DNA of 64,000 bases from assembly GCA_007375535.1 (NCBI GenBank), contig VMEM01000003.1:32811-96810 (forward strand), read 5' to 3'. The translations under genes were made by a program, and so were the position numbers. The DNA is from Parcubacteria group bacterium LiPW_41 (GTDB taxonomy: Bacteria; Patescibacteriota; Minisyncoccia; UBA6257; GWB1-50-10). The notes beneath the pieces are model-generated. The model was not told where the DNA came from, did not search any database, and worked only from the letters and a program-made list of their open reading frames with translations. The first letter of the stretch is position 1; each line of letters opens with the position of its first letter. Below are positions 9,827 to 60,297 of this stretch, piece after piece.

Positions 9827-10237
9827 TTAGAAGTTTTGAGGGAATCTTTTATAGGTTGTTTTTTTTGAATTCCAACCCTCTGGATATTTGCTCTTTGGTT
9901 TTTCTTTTGCATCAACCTCAGGTTCTTCAATCTCATTTTTTTCGGGTTTTTCACCCTTAAGATCATTGATTTGAGATTGCAGATCTGTTATTGCGTCTGC
10001 ATCTTTTTCTTGGCGTTCTTCAACACCGGTTATTCTTTCTTCATGATTTTTTAAGGTTTTATCAACCTTCTTTTTCCACTGAGTGTGAGAATTTTTTGAA
10101 ACTGTTTCAATTTTTTTATTCTCGACTTCCTTGGAAGAAGGGGAGAAGATATTAGTGAGGCAGTACAATCCGAAAACGAAAAGCGCTAGAACCAAAATAA
10201 CGCCAGCAACAACTTGAAGAATTTGTCTTCCAGTCAT
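9827..10237 (-). CDS. Membrane-anchored coiled-coil protein (hypothetical)
   Basis: One N-terminal TM helix, then a charged K/E-rich helical region. Confidence 0.5.
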   Translation of the reverse strand: MTGRQILQVVAGVILVLALFVFGLYCLTNIFSPSSKEVENKKIETVSKNSHTQWKKKVDKTLKNHEERITGVEERQEKDADAITDLQSQINDLKGEKPEKNEIEEPEVDAKEKPKSKYPEGWNSKKTTYKRFPQNF

Positions 10238-24623: not shown

Positions 24624-25844
24624 ATGGATTTTTTTACTATCACTACACGTGATAAAAAAACAAAAGCAAGAGTTGGAATGTTAAAGACTTCACATGGTGG
24701 CGTAGCTGAGACTCCGTCATATGTTGTTGTTGGAACTCGTGCAAAGGTTAAAACGTTAACCACAGAAGATATAAAGAAATCAAAAACGCAGATGATAATT
24801 TCAAATACATATCATCTGTTTCGTGAGCTTGGAGATTCAGTGAAAGAATTTGAAGGGTTGCATAGCCGATTAGGATTTGATGGAGTTGTTATGACAGATT
24901 CCGGTGGTTTTCAGGTGTTCTCACTTGGGTTTTCAAGGGAGCACAATGTTTCGAAAGTTGGTTTTTTTTCTCACAAAAAAAATAGTTTTGTCGCGGATCT
25001 CATTTTGGCATTGCGTGCGAAAATTGGTTTGAGAAACAAAAGGAATTCAGTACGTATAACAAACAACGGGGCTTGGTTCAAAGATGAATCATATAGTGAT
25101 AAAAAACCAATTTTTCTTACTCCAGAAAAATCAATTGAAATACAAGAGTCTCTTGGTGCTGATATTATTCTTGCATTCGATGAATGCACATCTCCAAAAC
25201 ACGGATTTTGGTATAACAAGTGGGCAATGATTCGTACTCACCGATGGGCGCTTCGATGTATAAAAGCAAAAAAGAAAAATTCACAGGCATTATATGGAAT
25301 AGTTCAAGGTGGAGACTATGAAGAATTACGAAAAGAAAGCGCTCGTGTAATTGGTAAGATGCCTTTTGATGGATTTGCTATTGGTGGTTCTTTTGGGAAA
25401 GAAGAAATGAGAAATGTTATTGATTGGAGTGTTCCATTTTTACCAGAGGAAAAACCAAGACACCTTTTAGGAGTTGGACGAATCGAAGATATTCTTGATG
25501 GTGTTGAGAGGGGCATTGATACATTTGATTGTGTTATCCCAACACGAGAAGGGCGACATGGGGGAATTTGGACCAAGAAGGGGAGGTATGACGTAACAAA
25601 AACAAAATTTTTAGGAAATAATGAATTATTAGAAAACGGGTGTATGTGTCCCGCGTGTAGTTCTGGGATTACAAAAGGAGTGTTGTGTAATCTTTTTAAA
25701 GAAAAAAATGAAGAAGCGGGGCGATATGCGACGCTGCACAATGTATTTTTTTTCAATTCGTTTATGGAGCATCTTCGTACATCAATAAAAAATGGAACAT
25801 TTTCCGAATTTAAAAAACAGGTTTTACTAGATTTGCATTTATAA
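24624..25844 (+). CDS. tgt: Queuine/preQ1 tRNA-guanine transglycosylase
   Basis: 406 aa. TIM-barrel TGT motifs (VMTDSGGFQV, AFDEC) and zinc site CMCPACSS...H. Confidence 0.9.
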   Translation: MDFFTITTRDKKTKARVGMLKTSHGGVAETPSYVVVGTRAKVKTLTTEDIKKSKTQMIISNTYHLFRELGDSVKEFEGLHSRLGFDGVVMTDSGGFQVFSLGFSREHNVSKVGFFSHKKNSFVADLILALRAKIGLRNKRNSVRITNNGAWFKDESYSDKKPIFLTPEKSIEIQESLGADIILAFDECTSPKHGFWYNKWAMIRTHRWALRCIKAKKKNSQALYGIVQGGDYEELRKESARVIGKMPFDGFAIGGSFGKEEMRNVIDWSVPFLPEEKPRHLLGVGRIEDILDGVERGIDTFDCVIPTREGRHGGIWTKKGRYDVTKTKFLGNNELLENGCMCPACSSGITKGVLCNLFKEKNEEAGRYATLHNVFFFNSFMEHLRTSIKNGTFSEFKKQVLLDLHL

Positions 25845-25847
25845 TGA

Positions 25848-25956
25848 ATCCCGTTAGAAAACGGAACATTCATAAATAGTCTACTAATATGTATGTATGC
25901 AAAAACAAATAACAAAAATGTCGAATAACCAAAATTGTCAGGTCTTCTAACGGGAT
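25848..25956. repeat. IR-bounded intergenic element, copy A (ATCCCGTTAGAA ... TTCTAACGGGAT). Its last two bases are the AT of the queA start codon.
   Basis: Perfect 12-bp terminal inverted repeats, 109 bp overall. Begins 3 nt after the tgt stop. No SD-like sequence upstream of the queA ATG. Confidence 0.7.
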
Positions 25957-31331: not shown

Positions 31332-32720
31332 ATGTTGAATGAGGTTTCAGGACATTTTGGAGATACGTTAACAGAACTTTTAGGAAAGGCTGAAATTTGG
31401 ATATTTCTTGTTCTTGTTGGGGTTTCTATTGCCGTTCCTTTTATTGCTCCACAAGAAGTAGTAAATATTTTTATTCGTTTCCTTGAGCTTACGTGGCCAA
31501 TTTGGTTATTCTTTTTTCTTTTTGAGATAGCAAAACCGCTTTATCTATTTATCAAACAGGAACAGTTTAAAGAAAAAGAGATGGCGGGAGAAAAAAATGC
31601 TCTTCTCGAACTCAGAATCCCACGAGCTCTTGAGAAGGGTCCACAGGCAATGGAGCAGATTCTTTTAGCAATACATGGAATGACTGGATCTCCAGGTGAT
31701 TGGAATAAAATCTGGCTTGATGGAGAAACGATGCTTTGGTTTTCACTTGAAATGGTGAGTATCGGGGGAGAGGTACATTTTTATGTACGAATTCCTAAAA
31801 GAAGTAAGAATCTTGTTGAAGCGGTCATTTTATCAAGTTATTCAGATATTGAAGTCGTTGAGGTTCCAGATTATATTTCGATAATTCCAGAAACAACTGC
31901 TGATTTATATGCTGAAGAAAAAGATATTTGGGGGACTGAAATAAAACTTGCGAAGGATTCAATGTATCCAATTAGAACATATGCATCTTTTGGTACTTCA
32001 GAAGAAAATGCAACTGCACTTGATCCGGCATCATCGTTTCTTGAAATACTCGGCAAATTAAAGACGGGAGAATTTGCTGGGGTCCAAATTGTTATTCAAC
32101 CTGCAGCGAAAGACTGGGGAAAACAATGGGCTGAGGCGTTAGATAAATTAAGGACGCCAAAAGTTGTTGGAACAACTCAACTTACTGATCCAAAAGAAAC
32201 AACCGCAACGATTGATGCAGTTGCACGAAATCTTGCAAAGTCTGCGTTTAAAACGTTAATTCGGGTTATGTATGTTGGTCCAACTACAGTGTTTAAAGAT
32301 GGTTCTGGATTTGTGCGTGGTGGAATTACTGGTGCATTCAATCAATATAGCTCTCCAACATTGAATGCATTTAAAGCAAATGGAGCTGTTGGTACTAGTG
32401 TTGATAAGTGGAAGAAGCCATATATTTTAAATGATGTAAGACTTGAAATGAAAAAACAGAGAATGTTGTGGAATTATCGAAAAAGAAAACTTGCGCCACA
32501 GTCATTTGTTGAAAAGTTTTTCACGTCATTTTCAACAAATGGAAATAATTCTGAGAGTTTTGAGCTCGCACTTGATGGGGTAGCAACAATCTTCCATTTG
32601 CCAACTTCTGTTGTTCTCACCACTCCACACATGCGAAGAGTTGAAAGTAAGAAATCTGGTCCTCCTGTTGGACTTGCAATATTTGGTGAAGAGTCGCAAT
32701 TGGAAAAATTTGGAGGGTGA
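31332..32720 (+). CDS. Module gene 1: membrane protein with two N-terminal TM helices and a large soluble domain (uncharacterised)
   Basis: 462 aa. TM helices around residues 20-70. No recognisable catalytic motif. First gene of a tightly packed, partly overlapping five-gene set. Confidence 0.5.
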   Translation: MLNEVSGHFGDTLTELLGKAEIWIFLVLVGVSIAVPFIAPQEVVNIFIRFLELTWPIWLFFFLFEIAKPLYLFIKQEQFKEKEMAGEKNALLELRIPRALEKGPQAMEQILLAIHGMTGSPGDWNKIWLDGETMLWFSLEMVSIGGEVHFYVRIPKRSKNLVEAVILSSYSDIEVVEVPDYISIIPETTADLYAEEKDIWGTEIKLAKDSMYPIRTYASFGTSEENATALDPASSFLEILGKLKTGEFAGVQIVIQPAAKDWGKQWAEALDKLRTPKVVGTTQLTDPKETTATIDAVARNLAKSAFKTLIRVMYVGPTTVFKDGSGFVRGGITGAFNQYSSPTLNAFKANGAVGTSVDKWKKPYILNDVRLEMKKQRMLWNYRKRKLAPQSFVEKFFTSFSTNGNNSESFELALDGVATIFHLPTSVVLTTPHMRRVESKKSGPPVGLAIFGEESQLEKFGG

Positions 32721-46595: not shown

Positions 46596-46623
46596 TTTAG
46601 ATATCTATTTGAAAAAAAGGCAT

Positions 46624-46658
46624 AAACCGTTCTATACTGTGATATAGAGCGGTTTTTA
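46624..46658 (+). terminator. Intrinsic terminator after rseP
   Basis: 12-bp stem aaccgttctata / tatagagcggtt (one G-U pair) followed by ttttt. Confidence 0.6.
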
Positions 46659-46665
46659 TATATTT

Positions 46666-46790
46666 ATCCCGTTAGAAACCGCGATCGCTTTGAGGGATAG
46701 GAAAATAATAAAACTATGAACCTTAGTCGAAACAATAAATTTATTCAACATGTCGCATCATTTTCGATTGCGATCTGTTTCTAACGGGAT
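46666..46790. repeat. IR-bounded intergenic element, copy B (ATCCCGTTAGAAAC ... GTTTCTAACGGGAT). Its last two bases are the AT of the proS start codon.
   Basis: Perfect 14-bp terminal inverted repeats, 125 bp overall. Same terminal sequence as copies A and C. Confidence 0.7.
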
Positions 46791-49511: not shown

Positions 49512-49543
49512 TCGAAATAATAAAATAGGGTTTTTCTAATAAG

Positions 49544-50239
49544 ATGAAAACAACTCGCATATTAGTTCAGGTGTTATTACTCATTTCTCTTATAGTTGCA
49601 CTCCTTATGTTTCGTAGTGAAATAGGTGATTTTATTGTTGGACTTCGTTCCGTTGTGTTTGGTGTGCTTGGTCCCTCATGCGAAGTACAAAAAATGAAAG
49701 ACGTTCAAGCAGAGAATGTATCACTCAAAAAACAAATTGAATTACTTTCACTTAAGATGGGAATAAAGGAGAATAGTGGAGAGCTTGTAGCAAATGTTTA
49801 TTCATCTTATCCATTTAATGACAAAGTTCATATTGTGGTTGATAAGGGGAGTAATGATGGAGTTAACGTTGGAATGCCGGTAATGGTACAAAAAAACATT
49901 GTTATCGGGAAAGTCATTTCAGTTAAAAAAACGCAAAGTGAGATTCAAACTATTTTTGATCCAGAATGGAAAACAAGTGTAGTGATTGGTACCTCGACAG
50001 TAAAGGCGGTTTTGAAAGGGGGAAATACTCCTGAGGTTCAATTTATTCCTAAAGATGCACACATTGTCTCTGGTGAGGAAGTATTAAATATCGCACAGGA
50101 ATTTCCAATTCATACTATACTTGGATCAATTAAATCGGTTCGGGAGGATGAGAAGAAGTTATGGCAGGTCGCGAGTATTGAATTGCCAGTTTCTTTTGAT
50201 GCACTTCGTACGGTAACTATACTTACGACATTTCCATAA
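49544..50239 (+). CDS. mreC: Rod shape-determining protein MreC
   Basis: N-terminal TM and coiled coil, then MreC beta-barrel motifs (VVIGTSTVKAVLKG, IVSGEEVLNIAQEFP). Confidence 0.75.
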   Translation: MKTTRILVQVLLLISLIVALLMFRSEIGDFIVGLRSVVFGVLGPSCEVQKMKDVQAENVSLKKQIELLSLKMGIKENSGELVANVYSSYPFNDKVHIVVDKGSNDGVNVGMPVMVQKNIVIGKVISVKKTQSEIQTIFDPEWKTSVVIGTSTVKAVLKGGNTPEVQFIPKDAHIVSGEEVLNIAQEFPIHTILGSIKSVREDEKKLWQVASIELPVSFDALRTVTILTTFP

Positions 50240-58843: not shown

Positions 58844-58889
58844 AGTTTAGTTGTTTGTGGTGATGTTATACTAAATATAGAGAAACGTG

Positions 58890-59078
58890 TCCCGTTAGAG
58901 ACGGTTTGTGAATGCATAACAAGTATTCTCACTATTATCTTTACCTGACACATAAGGAATAACAACAACGGAAATGGTTATTTATAACACTTACAATTAT
59001 ATCAATACACTGGTCGCACATACTACAGAAAATGGCTGTGACTCTACTCACATAACCATTTCCTGTCTCTAACGGGAT
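58890..59078. repeat. IR-bounded intergenic element, copy C (TCCCGTTAGAGAC ... GTCTCTAACGGGA[T]). Ends at the start codon of the pilin gene.
   Basis: 13-bp terminal inverted repeats, about 189 bp overall. Carries a compensatory change relative to copies A and B (GAAAC/GTTTC becomes GAGAC/GTCTC). Internal 10-bp hairpin ggaaatggtt / aaccatttcc. Confidence 0.7.
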
Positions 59079-59889
59079 GAAGAATCTATTAAAAGATAAT
59101 AATTCTGGATTTACCCTTATTGAGCTTCTTATTTATGCAGCAATTTTCTCAGTAAGTGCTGTTTTTTTGGTGAACATTCTAACTTCAATCACACAGACAC
59201 AAATTAAGCAGACTTCTGCAAATGAAGTTGGTCAGCAGGTTTCTTTTGTCAGTAATACAATTCAGCGATTAGTTCGAGAGGGAAGTGTTATTGAAAACGA
59301 TTCTGGAGTTGCAAGTTCAACGATCAAAATCAGAACAACGGCGTCTTCAACTGATCCAACACTTATTTATTGGGATCAAACGAATAACACTATTCAATTA
59401 AGACAAGGATCAAGTTCGCCAATACAACTTACCAATGAGAAGGTTGTGGTAAGTGCATTTTCTGCGACAAAATACGAAAATCCTGGAGGAAATGCAGTTG
59501 TACAAGTGGATTTTGCGCTTGCGGTTAACACAACGGTGGAGAGAGCTAAGGTTACGAAATTTTGGAGGGGTGCAATAACAAGAATTTCTGCCGCAACATT
59601 TGATTCTGATTTACTTCCAAATACTTCAAACGCATTAAATCTTGGTGGCGCAGGATCAACATGGAAAGATGGTTTTTTTAATGGCGCAGTGAATATAATT
59701 GGAAAGCTAGGAGTAAGTACACAGCCATCTGATATCTCTGGTATGGCTTCGGGGATAAAAGTAAATGGAGATGTCTCATTTATGGCTTCAGCAAACGGAG
59801 TAATATTAAAAGCGCCAAATGGAACTTGTTATAGGGTTACTGTGATAAATGGGGGAACGCTTGCCACGGCAACTGCGACGTGCCCGTAG
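59077..59889 (+). CDS. Type IV pilin-like protein (long, 270 aa) with a class III signal peptide
   Basis: MKNLLKDNNSG followed by FTLIELLIYAAIFSVSAVFLV: a prepilin leader, cleavage-site Gly, then Phe+1 and Glu+5. Confidence 0.7.
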   Translation: MKNLLKDNNSGFTLIELLIYAAIFSVSAVFLVNILTSITQTQIKQTSANEVGQQVSFVSNTIQRLVREGSVIENDSGVASSTIKIRTTASSTDPTLIYWDQTNNTIQLRQGSSSPIQLTNEKVVVSAFSATKYENPGGNAVVQVDFALAVNTTVERAKVTKFWRGAITRISAATFDSDLLPNTSNALNLGGAGSTWKDGFFNGAVNIIGKLGVSTQPSDISGMASGIKVNGDVSFMASANGVILKAPNGTCYRVTVINGGTLATATATCP

Positions 59890-59943: not shown

Positions 59944-60297
59944 ATGGATACCTCAACCAATTTAAAACAAAGGTGTTATAGGTTCGGACTTTTAATAATT
60001 CAGTTGTGCGACACGCTACCACAGAAGAGAAGCGCATGGATAATTAGTGACCAATGTATCCGTTCAGCCACAAGTATTGGCGCCAATCTTATAGAAGCAC
60101 GCGCTTCAAGCTCTCGCTTAGAATTCAAGAAGTTCTTCGAAGTCGCCCTTAAGAGCGCAAATGAAACAGTCTATTGGTTATCCCTGTTAAAAGATTCTGG
60201 ATTAGCGAGTAACGAAAAGATTTCTCCACTTATCCAAGAGTGTGAAGAACTTGCAAAGATGTTAGGAAAGAGTGTACTAACACTTAAGAAGAAATAA
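59944..60297 (+). CDS. Four-helix-bundle protein (23S rRNA intervening-sequence protein family)
   Basis: 117 aa. Pattern IRSATSIGANLIEA...EF..F..ALKSANETVYWLSLL characteristic of this family. Confidence 0.65.
   Translation: MDTSTNLKQRCYRFGLLIIQLCDTLPQKRSAWIISDQCIRSATSIGANLIEARASSSRLEFKKFFEVALKSANETVYWLSLLKDSGLASNEKISPLIQECEELAKMLGKSVLTLKKK

Follow-up and report, generated by a model that had tools for sequence, protein, structure and literature searches.

A family of small mobile hairpin elements at the start codons of Patescibacteria genes

Introduction

How does a gene come to have its start codon built into the end of a repeated, hairpin-forming sequence, and how might such a gene still be translated? 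The question is raised by a gene for a prepilin-type protein in a stretch of 64,000 nucleotides (nt) from Parcubacteria group bacterium LiPW_41 (contig VMEM01000003.1, positions 32,811–96,810 of the forward strand), referred to here as the window, in whose coordinates features are given unless a relative is named. The original prediction for this locus held that the gene is preceded by one copy (C) of an inverted-repeat element whose arms have changed in a compensatory manner, and that the element may form an extended rod, implying a conserved structured RNA at the pilin locus. An inverted-repeat element in several copies is indeed present: the sequence CCCGTTAG is found seven times in the 64-kb window against 0.5 expected, six of these occurrences make up three arm pairs (copies A, B, and C), and each arm pair terminates in ...TCTAACGGG followed by ATG, an arrangement matched by none of 100 shuffles.

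The element is a small, non-autonomous mobile DNA resembling the MITEs (miniature transposable elements with inverted repeats), and not a regulatory RNA specific to one locus. The family is widespread in Patescibacteria (the candidate phyla radiation, CPR) and is also present in metagenome-assembled genomes (MAGs) labelled as other phyla. It is apparently undescribed so far: full-text literature searches, arm sequences included, found no description of the element, and nothing like it appears in a review of prokaryotic MITEs from 2024. We consider it probable that these mobile hairpins insert at start codons with a 4-bp duplication, and that the host gene is kept expressed through coupling to a short leader open reading frame (ORF) within the element.

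Copy C and the pilin start codon

Copy C is 188 bp long (58890–59077), and its arms, TCCCGTTAGAGAC and GTCTCTAACGGGA, pair perfectly. The features of the locus are the following.

58864–58872, + strand: putative extended −10 box of the pilin gene, TGtTATACT, read from the sequence upstream of copy C
58890–58902, + strand: left terminal inverted repeat, 5′ strand of helix P1, TCCCGTTAGAGAC, from sequence and fold
58970–58981, + strand: 5′ strand of helix P2, GGAAATGGTTAT, with AAC directly before it (58967–58969)
58974–59072, + strand: leader ORF of 32 codons, MVIYNTYNYINTLVAHTTENGCDSTHITISCL, from ATG 58974 to a UAA (59070–59072) within the right arm, 4 nt 5′ of the pilin ATG
59052–59063, + strand: 3′ strand of P2, ATAACCATTTCC, with the junction T next to it (59064)
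59065–59077, + strand: right terminal inverted repeat, 3′ strand of P1, GTCTCTAACGGGA, from sequence
59077–59889, + strand: pilin host gene, an ORF for a prepilin-type protein that begins MKNLLKDNNSG, followed by FTLIELL... (Pfam N_methyl, 28.1 bits against a cut-off of 21.2)

The pilin ATG occupies 59077–59079, and its A (A59077) is the final base of the right arm of copy C. The claim that the repeat terminus builds the start codon is therefore correct and, beyond this locus, describes a defining property of the whole family. The change in the arms of copy C is compensatory, as had been proposed: position 11 holds G58900:C59067 in place of the A:T of copies A and B, and pairing is kept. A second interior pair had also been reported, at 58971 and 59046; such a pair exists, but its strands lie at 58970–58981 and 59052–59063. 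Nor does it lengthen the arms into an extended rod. It forms a conserved helix of its own (P2), with one T between it and the right arm, and is a branch in copy C, where it measures 12 bp with a 70-nt loop, the longest exact P2 among the 65 copies with a detected P2. Folding, the check proposed along with these claims, found all three window copies significantly more stable than shuffles (z = −3.2, −4.6, and −5.6 for copies A, B, and C, respectively), with a predicted energy of −53.1 kcal/mol for the RNA of copy C.

The putative −10 box was missed by a consensus promoter scan, which omitted it because a −35 box is absent. If the box is used, the whole of copy C would be transcribed as a 5′ leader. 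The sequence TATACTAAATATA is also found 7–13 nt 5′ of the pilin ATG in the element-free relatives L123 and L121.

Extent of the family and position at start codons

Two sets of copies were collected. The first came from a genome scan with one genome per species and both 10-nt arms 71–131 nt apart, which yielded at least 120 blocks from about a hundred MAGs; the second, used as a replicate, came from an independent metagenome scan (at least 120 contig stretches). The search pattern fixed the outer 10 bp of the arms to TCCCGTTAGA and TCTAACGGGA. In 120 of 143 genome copies (84%) and in 111 of 129 replicate copies (86%), one side of the element, and one only, borders on an ATG that opens at least 60 codons; random ATGs do so in 23.7% of cases. 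These 120 and 111 copies are the sets analysed below, within which copies of one subfamily are not independent. Elements are 80–192 bp long, with internal ORFs of at most 39 codons. Hosts among the matches listed include Saccharibacteria, many Parcubacteria and Paceibacteria lineages, and Kazan, as well as MAGs labelled Omnitrophota, Sedimentisphaerales, Elusimicrobia, and WOR-3; one copy lies on a viral contig (L124).

Could a simple sequence preference produce this distribution? Of the occurrences of ATG(AA/GA/AG) in the window, 562 lie within coding sequence, 24 at gene starts, and 26 elsewhere in non-coding DNA. Preference for the motif together with lethality of coding insertions would, on its own, place about half of the copies at starts against the 85%–90% or so that are seen, and targeting or retention is therefore stronger than this rejected model allows. 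A bias in retention at starts, with the right arm supplying a start-codon base, is plausible.

A TANNNT hexamer peaks 6–7 nt 5′ of the left ATG (22/82), and many target genes would thus have starts of the leaderless type; other target starts, such as that of queA, are stop/start overlaps. The window genome has almost no Shine–Dalgarno (SD) motifs, and many window genes (for example, those at 31332, 39390, and 12494) have a TATAAT-like box 6–8 nt 5′ of the ATG, a leaderless layout.

Copies in the Omnitrophota- and Sedimentisphaerales-labelled MAGs obey the start-codon rule. Those in two Elusimicrobia MAGs (L060, 4658–4764; L110, 5271–5412) and in a WOR-3 MAG (L098) are not at start codons; the Elusimicrobia copies are mutually similar and have no recognisable duplication, and L098 retains the 4-bp duplication TTTA. 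The viral copy (L124, 3735–3828) has an intact ATGAA duplication, an SD sequence (GAGGTG) ahead of the left ATG, an internal AAGGAGG 11 nt 5′ of the right ATG, and a nested mini-hairpin, CCCTGTTAGAGG-TTTA-CCTCTAACAGGG. To judge from these motifs, the element seems to bring its own SD where the host uses SD sequences.

Target duplication, empty sites, and decay

The 4-bp flanks of the element are identical in 85 of the 120 copies, against 35.7 (maximum 46) when partners are permuted, and in 74 of 111 replicate copies. Most flanks read ATGNN–element–TGNN. Duplications that do not involve an ATG (CATA, TAAA, CTAA, and others) obey a 4-bp and not a 5-bp rule, with the element running T...A, from which it follows that the last A of the element makes the new ATG; a few copies deviate by ±1 nt. 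The other two full copies in the window, at queA and proS, allow this to be followed at individual loci.

25849–25955, + strand: copy A, with an intact target duplication (TGAA 25845–25848, element, TGAA 25956–25959)
25897 to 25948–25950, + strand: leader ORF of copy A, ATG to TAA, 17 codons
25955, + strand: ATG of queA, host gene of copy A (QueA by PF02547)
46667–46789, + strand: copy B, rod layout, with P1 formed by 46667–46679 and 46777–46789 and a CGC bulge at 46680–46682
46683–46688 with 46770–46775, + strand: P2 of copy B, GATCGC with GCGATC
46716 to 46782–46784, + strand: leader ORF of copy B, ATG to TAA, 22 codons
46789, + strand: ATG of proS (ProRS), host gene of copy B

The left ATGAA of copy A (25844–25848) overlaps the tgt stop TAA (25842–25844). 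The orthologous site in L125 is empty, reading TTTAGG/ATGAAT/CAA with a single ATGAAT and with the tgt stop overlapping the queA start; in the window, ATGAA flanks copy A on both sides, and the target duplication is thus seen directly. The syntenic relatives L121, L122, and L123 are element-free at the proS start, where L123 reads ...TTTTTATAC followed directly by ATGAAACAA. In L121 (91% ProRS identity), a 30-nt spacer, CCGTCCTCACGTGTAAATCACCCCAATAAA, stands at the proS start (9960–10000) in place of copy B; its first bases are like a damaged left arm, and it may be the footprint of an excision or deletion. Empty sites are also found at the pilin gene, in L123 (TATACTAAATATA before ATGGAG) and in L121 (TATACT...GAGA before ATGAAG). 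Comparison of the pilin locus across relatives had been suggested at the outset, and the pilin starts that lack the element speak for copy C as an insertion and not as a regulatory RNA specific to the locus.

In L127 (2985–3003), a right arm by itself, TTTTCTAACGGG, separates the tgt stop from the queA ATG, and L126 has AACCGGGATG at the tgt/queA junction (1170–1190); from these remains, the queA start appears to have been struck repeatedly in different lineages. Empty sites, the solo arm, and decayed copies together point to fast turnover of copies. Tandem copies (L101, L015), nested copies (L099, L073), and an insertion into the arm of another copy (L115) were also found, and L114 has two copies with 95% identity at different genes of one contig. 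Up to four copies lie in one 8-kb block (L114), and the window itself holds three copies and one remnant in its 64 kb; only six pairs of interiors reach 75% identity. The family therefore displays five features by which MITEs are recognised: small size without a transposase gene, terminal inverted repeats, a target duplication of fixed length, dispersed copies of which some are near-identical, and orthologous sites that are occupied in some genomes and empty in others.

Copies without a duplication share left flanks, namely ACTTG (L026, L031, L068) and ATTTA (L113, L119, and window 46662–46666). ACTTG or ACGTG plus the arm makes a 3-codon mini-ORF (NTG TCC CGT TAG), and in L119, ATTTA can pair with TGAAT 3′ of the right arm.

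Structure and covariation of the hairpin

P1, the terminal inverted repeat, is 13 bp long in most copies (modal length). When more copies were sampled, the covariation seen between the window copies was reproduced: among 103 distinct arm pairs, pairing at positions 11–13 reaches 99.3%, double changes fill 118 cells as compared with 38 ± 4 in shuffles (0/500), A:U, G:C, U:A, and C:G are all present, and the signal collapses in slid controls. The independent metagenome sample (111 copies) gave the same pattern. Position 14 is usually a C/T mismatch. Within positions 1–10, one arm-pair variant, TCACG/CGTGA, is seen in L114.

P2 is a second helix of 6–7 bp at the gene-proximal end of the element. 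Its 5′ strand is preceded by a YRC motif and its 3′ strand is followed by a single T and then by the right arm, and the P1/P2 junction is thus asymmetric, with YRC on the 5′ side and T on the 3′ side. About 30 copies have the 5′ strand of P2 directly after the left arm (a rod, as in copy B), and about 30 others are local hairpins. In rod-layout copies chosen by the YRC-G motif only, P2 is 92% paired, with double changes in five of six pairs. Stacked on each other, P1 and P2 make up a helix about 20 bp long, which an asymmetric internal loop interrupts. The interior is variable and A/T-rich, and those of copies A, B, and C are unrelated and do not align. In otherwise unrelated copies, two motifs recur at positions ~20–35 and 45–70: YGGGA(W), often as (T)A(N)CGGGAT, and AGTCGAA. 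The longer form of the former resembles a right-arm end, and YGGGA(W) could form an alternative structure by pairing with the left arm.

The element has a polarity. In 56 copies the P2 end faces the gene (proximal) and in 7 it is distal, with all 31 rod-layout copies proximal; in the replicate, polarity by motif is 62:2. On contigs with copies on both strands (L015, L112), polarity follows the gene.

Is the pairing that of an RNA? Sense and antisense strands of the 120 copies do not differ usably in minimum free energy (65 versus 55 copies, p = 0.06). Sense-strand G:U against A:C in P1 is 13:8, then 2:10 in the replicate (pooled ~15:18), and in P2 it is 21:22, so that neither helix has an RNA-strand signature. 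Because pairing is maintained without such a signature, the compensatory changes are assigned to a need for the hairpin during mobility: they would reflect selection for an intact terminal hairpin, more likely during transposition on folded or cruciform DNA than in a regulatory RNA. Co-evolution of the arms with a protein is unlikely, since several variants at positions 11–13 coexist in one genome.

The leader ORF

The frame that ends at the right-arm UAA (UAA-CGGG-AUG) is unusually open. Its median is 21.5 open codons in the 120 copies, against 10 and 11.5 in the other two frames (p = 5e-11 and 1e-5), 13 on the antisense strand (p = 3e-4), and 11.7 (maximum 15) in 200 interior shuffles; in the replicate, the medians are 23 and 11 (p = 6e-9). 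ATG-started ORFs of at least 10 codons that end at the arm UAA are present in 58 of 120 copies, as compared with 16.9 (maximum 29) in shuffles, and 47 of the 58 begin inside the element, at a median position of 45. The latter have A/T-rich sequence ahead of them and MK, MN, or MT starts like the ordinary genes of these genomes. ORFs starting inside the element number 43 of 111 in the replicate (shuffles 13.3, maximum 22). With AUGA overlaps and in-frame fusions added, the fusions accounting for about 12 of 120 copies, the count rises to 79 of 120 against 42.5 in shuffles. All three window copies have a leader ORF, of 17, 22, and 32 codons.

The leader peptides are unrelated, and it would therefore be the act of translation, not the peptide, that matters. 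Sequence around the leader ATG is predicted to be unpaired with a probability of 0.52, as against 0.20 for that around the gene ATG. The layout, a short ORF that has its own start, that stops a few nt short of the next start, and whose peptide is not conserved, fits that of integron ORF-11. Together, these statistics suggest translational coupling of the leader ORF to the host gene, and such coupling would also explain the polarity bias. In L185, L202, and L216, the frame to the arm UAA is open for 144–202 codons upstream, and an upstream ORF appears, from the sequence, to read through the whole element and to stop 4 nt before the next ATG.

An outward promoter inside the element was considered and rejected: −10-like hexamers have no peak at a fixed position inside elements, and consensus scans are blank inside the window copies. 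Translation of the whole element by read-through was likewise rejected, lengths falling into all three classes modulo 3 (54/38/28).

Proposed mechanism

The element inserts with duplication of 4 bp of its target, almost always the TGNN made up of part of a start codon and the two bases after it; the cuts, staggered by 4 bp, would be made by a transposase. The old ATGNN is left behind on the left side, and the terminal A of the element together with the duplicated TGNN forms a new ATG for the right-hand gene. This ATG would be buried in P1, in genomes without SD sequences, and the element would provide a short leader ORF, begun either by an internal ATG in accessible, A/T-rich sequence or by the host ATG's left copy. 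A ribosome passing through the 3′ strands of P2 and P1 would melt both helices, halt at the right-arm UAA 4 nt before the gene AUG or at an AUGA overlap, and re-initiate on the host gene. Hopping of ribosomes between two ATGs was rejected as an alternative route, window copies B and C having no left ATG.

Several observations weigh against this mechanism. A clear UAA-ending leader ORF is present in only about half of the copies (about two-thirds with AUGA overlaps and fusions), and the open frame could be the relic of a parental transposase ORF with its stop in the right repeat. A 13-bp stem stands on the start of an essential gene, proS. Copies B and C have no left duplicate, and their left flanks, ATTTA and ACGTG, are not simple decay products. 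Conservation of arm positions 1–10 is partly by construction, these having been fixed by the search. Identical 10-bp ends over very distant lineages are unusual for a MITE. Finally, the 1.85 Mb flanking the copies yielded neither an autonomous element nor a transposase with these ends. Arms paired over kilobases, and long ORFs with their stop in a right arm, were likewise not found in this flanking sequence, to which the search for pairs wider than 600 bp was confined.

The ends shared by distant lineages hint at a conserved host factor. A wider proposal, put forward tentatively and with rather less than an even chance of being right, is that of a pan-phylum, selfish, translationally transparent element with start codons as its homing sites. 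It would rebuild the ATG with its terminal base and return ribosomes to the host gene by way of a self-contained leader ORF and a UAA-N4-AUG restart module, and its mobility might depend on a conserved host function or on an unrecognised type of transposase. The argument for this last point is that the same 10-bp ends are found from Saccharibacteria to Omnitrophota- and Planctomycetota-labelled MAGs, with no transposase found.

Alternative explanations

Two alternatives, each of them unlikely, accept the same mobile element and differ from the proposed mechanism in what happens at the host start. According to the first, the P1+P2 helix is a site for an RNase III-like endonuclease, and cleavage frees the downstream mRNA, perhaps as a leaderless or near-leaderless message. 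In its favour, P1 and P2 do stack into one long, asymmetrically interrupted helix, many target genes look leaderless (the TANNNT peak and the same layout in the window), and RNase III is known to cleave Correia repeats in transcripts (PMC10969869). Against this, there is no known enzyme that cuts exactly at the helix end on the 3′ strand to give 5′-AUG, the pairing has no sense-strand bias, and processing would leave unexplained why frames that end at the arm UAA are open in such excess.

The second, no less doubtful, is that the MITE subfamilies came from an insertion sequence through internal deletion and that the open frame is a relic of its transposase ORF, which ran from about 45 nt inside the left end to a stop in the right repeat, with no role in host-gene expression. 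In many insertion sequences, the transposase ORF stops inside the right inverted repeat, and the leader ORFs do all end in the right repeat, with starts that vary rather little in their distance from the left end (median 45). Yet the interiors have diverged too far to align while the frame has stayed open far above shuffles in two independent samples, and the relic offers no explanation for a polarity that follows the host gene (56:7); moreover, the parent was not found in the 1.85 Mb around the copies.

Far less probable is the reading implied by the original prediction, namely a conserved cis-regulatory RNA in the pilin 5′ leader—a thermometer, a riboswitch-like RNA, or a protein-binding RNA—whose long-range stem masks the start. 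The stable fold of copy C with the ATG at the foot of its stem, and the covarying base pairs, are what such an RNA would show. The host genes queA, proS, and the pilin gene are, however, unrelated, the interiors are not conserved, and the pairing is without RNA-strand bias. The start sites of orthologous genes in close relatives lack the element, and these empty sites largely refute the reading, which must also contend with target duplications and with tandem and nested copies. Rfam 15 gave no match in the window at gathering thresholds and none on the elements of eight element-bearing loci even at E ≤ 5.

Although inverted repeats flanking about 160 bp directly 5′ of a surface-structure gene recall the fimS or Bacteroides layout, in which inverted repeats flank a promoter, an invertible promoter (inverton) giving phase-variable pilin expression with the repeats as recombinase sites can be practically discounted, as the same element stands at the housekeeping genes queA and proS, has no promoter-like signal at a fixed internal position, shows a polarity of 56:7 and not a mixed one, has target duplications and empty sites, and leaves the promoter-like box outside the repeats.

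Other candidates were rejected outright. Mimicry of tRNA or transfer-messenger RNA was dropped after ARAGORN found none, and a promoter of the extracytoplasmic function type, read by eye as GGAAAT-N16-TCTAA, was dropped because the P2 sequence varies. Single-strand models of the attC and IS200/IS605 types are contradicted by a reversed order of core sites and by the presence of a real target duplication.

Comparison with known systems

The best functional analogue is found in integrons, where ORF-11 and ORF-18 of attI1 and short ORFs in attC sites are reported to drive the translation of a gene without an initiation region of its own and to relieve the barrier of a stem-loop by termination and re-initiation, irrespective of the peptide sequence (PMC8876359). 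In both systems, a short ORF on mobile DNA has its stop in a recombination-site repeat near the next start. The attC layout RYYYAAC...GTTRRRY (PMC8876359) is, however, the reverse of the GTTAGAR...YTCTAAC found here, on either strand. Integrons also rely on an integrase with attI and attC, and their ORFs use SD sequences, whereas the starts here are SD-independent; coupling has been demonstrated in integrons and is proposed here from sequence statistics.

Correia elements, MITEs with a TA duplication, are not known outside Neisseria. They are similar to the present family in their size (~100–150 bp), non-autonomous nature, terminal inverted repeats, and short target duplication, but differ in repeat sequence and in duplicating TA and not a 4-bp TGNN, and the present family spans many CPR classes and beyond. 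Correia elements are also not known to have a start-codon register, to donate a start-codon base, or to carry a leader ORF ending by the host ATG. They are gene-adjacent, co-transcribed, and hairpin-forming, and they alter the expression of the neighbouring gene (PMC10969869). Rickettsia palindromic elements, of ~150 bp and in reduced genomes, keep their frame open, so that the host gene can still be translated after their insertion (PMC10969869). The likeness lies in a palindromic mobile element whose insertion the host gene tolerates in translation; the Rickettsia elements lie inside ORFs and become part of the host protein, whereas the present ones lie at the start codon and usually have their own stop 4 nt before the host ATG.

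REPINs are hairpin-forming, non-autonomous repeats of ~100 bp whose stems keep their pairing by compensatory changes. They are extragenic, however, with a GTAG motif and dependence on a single-copy RAYT gene, and are not known to duplicate their target; none of these traits was seen here. Cluster K mycobacteriophages are reported to carry SAS and ESAS sequences, conserved 13-bp motifs with an SD-like core just 5′ of many start codons, which, unlike the present family, are not known to form hairpin elements, to duplicate a target, or to be polymorphic for insertion. The start-codon register, the donated first base, and the layout of leader ORF and restart set the family apart from Correia elements, Rickettsia palindromic elements, ERIC, and REPINs.

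The ends of IS1380 and piggyBac-type elements begin CC(C)...TAGA and come with a 4–5-bp duplication, and piggyBac itself targets TTAA, has a 13-bp repeat (CCCTAGAAAGATA), and excises precisely. This resemblance is a lead only: it may be due to chance, and no such transposase was found near any copy.

Further features of the window

One further arm-like sequence lies in the window.

49532–49544, + strand: degenerate right-arm remnant, TTTTCTAATAAGA, adjoining the ATG (49544) of the gene after mreB, MreC by synteny

At the corresponding mreC junction of the relative L121 (12700–12836), a decayed copy is preserved more completely, and the window sequence would probably be a fourth copy, decayed and mostly deleted.

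The deposited ProRS has 579 residues and begins at ATG 46750, inside copy B and in frame with 46789; close homologues have 566–571 residues and start MKQSHYF. The deposited start, with its 13 extra residues read from copy B, looks like a miscall caused by the element. Just 5′ of copy B, at 46609–46655, a terminator-like hairpin (13 pairs and a T run) overlaps a promoter-like TTGAAA-N18-TATACT, and this block is conserved in the relatives L121 and L123. The gene after the pilin gene (59944–60294) matches Pfam 23S_rRNA_IVP (E = 3e-24), a family otherwise known from intervening sequences in 23S rRNA.

Implications

If the proposed mechanism is true, the family represents a new insertion strategy, which targets the sole non-coding position present at every gene of an ultra-compact genome and is made harmless by a regenerated start codon and, apparently, by translational coupling. 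Annotation errors like the ProRS miscall are likely across CPR MAGs. Copies could serve as polymorphic markers at strain level, and UAA-CGGG-AUG could be a portable device for coupling. The broad spread of identical ends, with one copy on a viral contig, points to horizontal traffic among co-occurring uncultivated lineages. The elements also offer a natural test system for translation initiation in CPR bacteria, which lack SD sequences, are rich in leaderless starts, and of which few can be cultivated.

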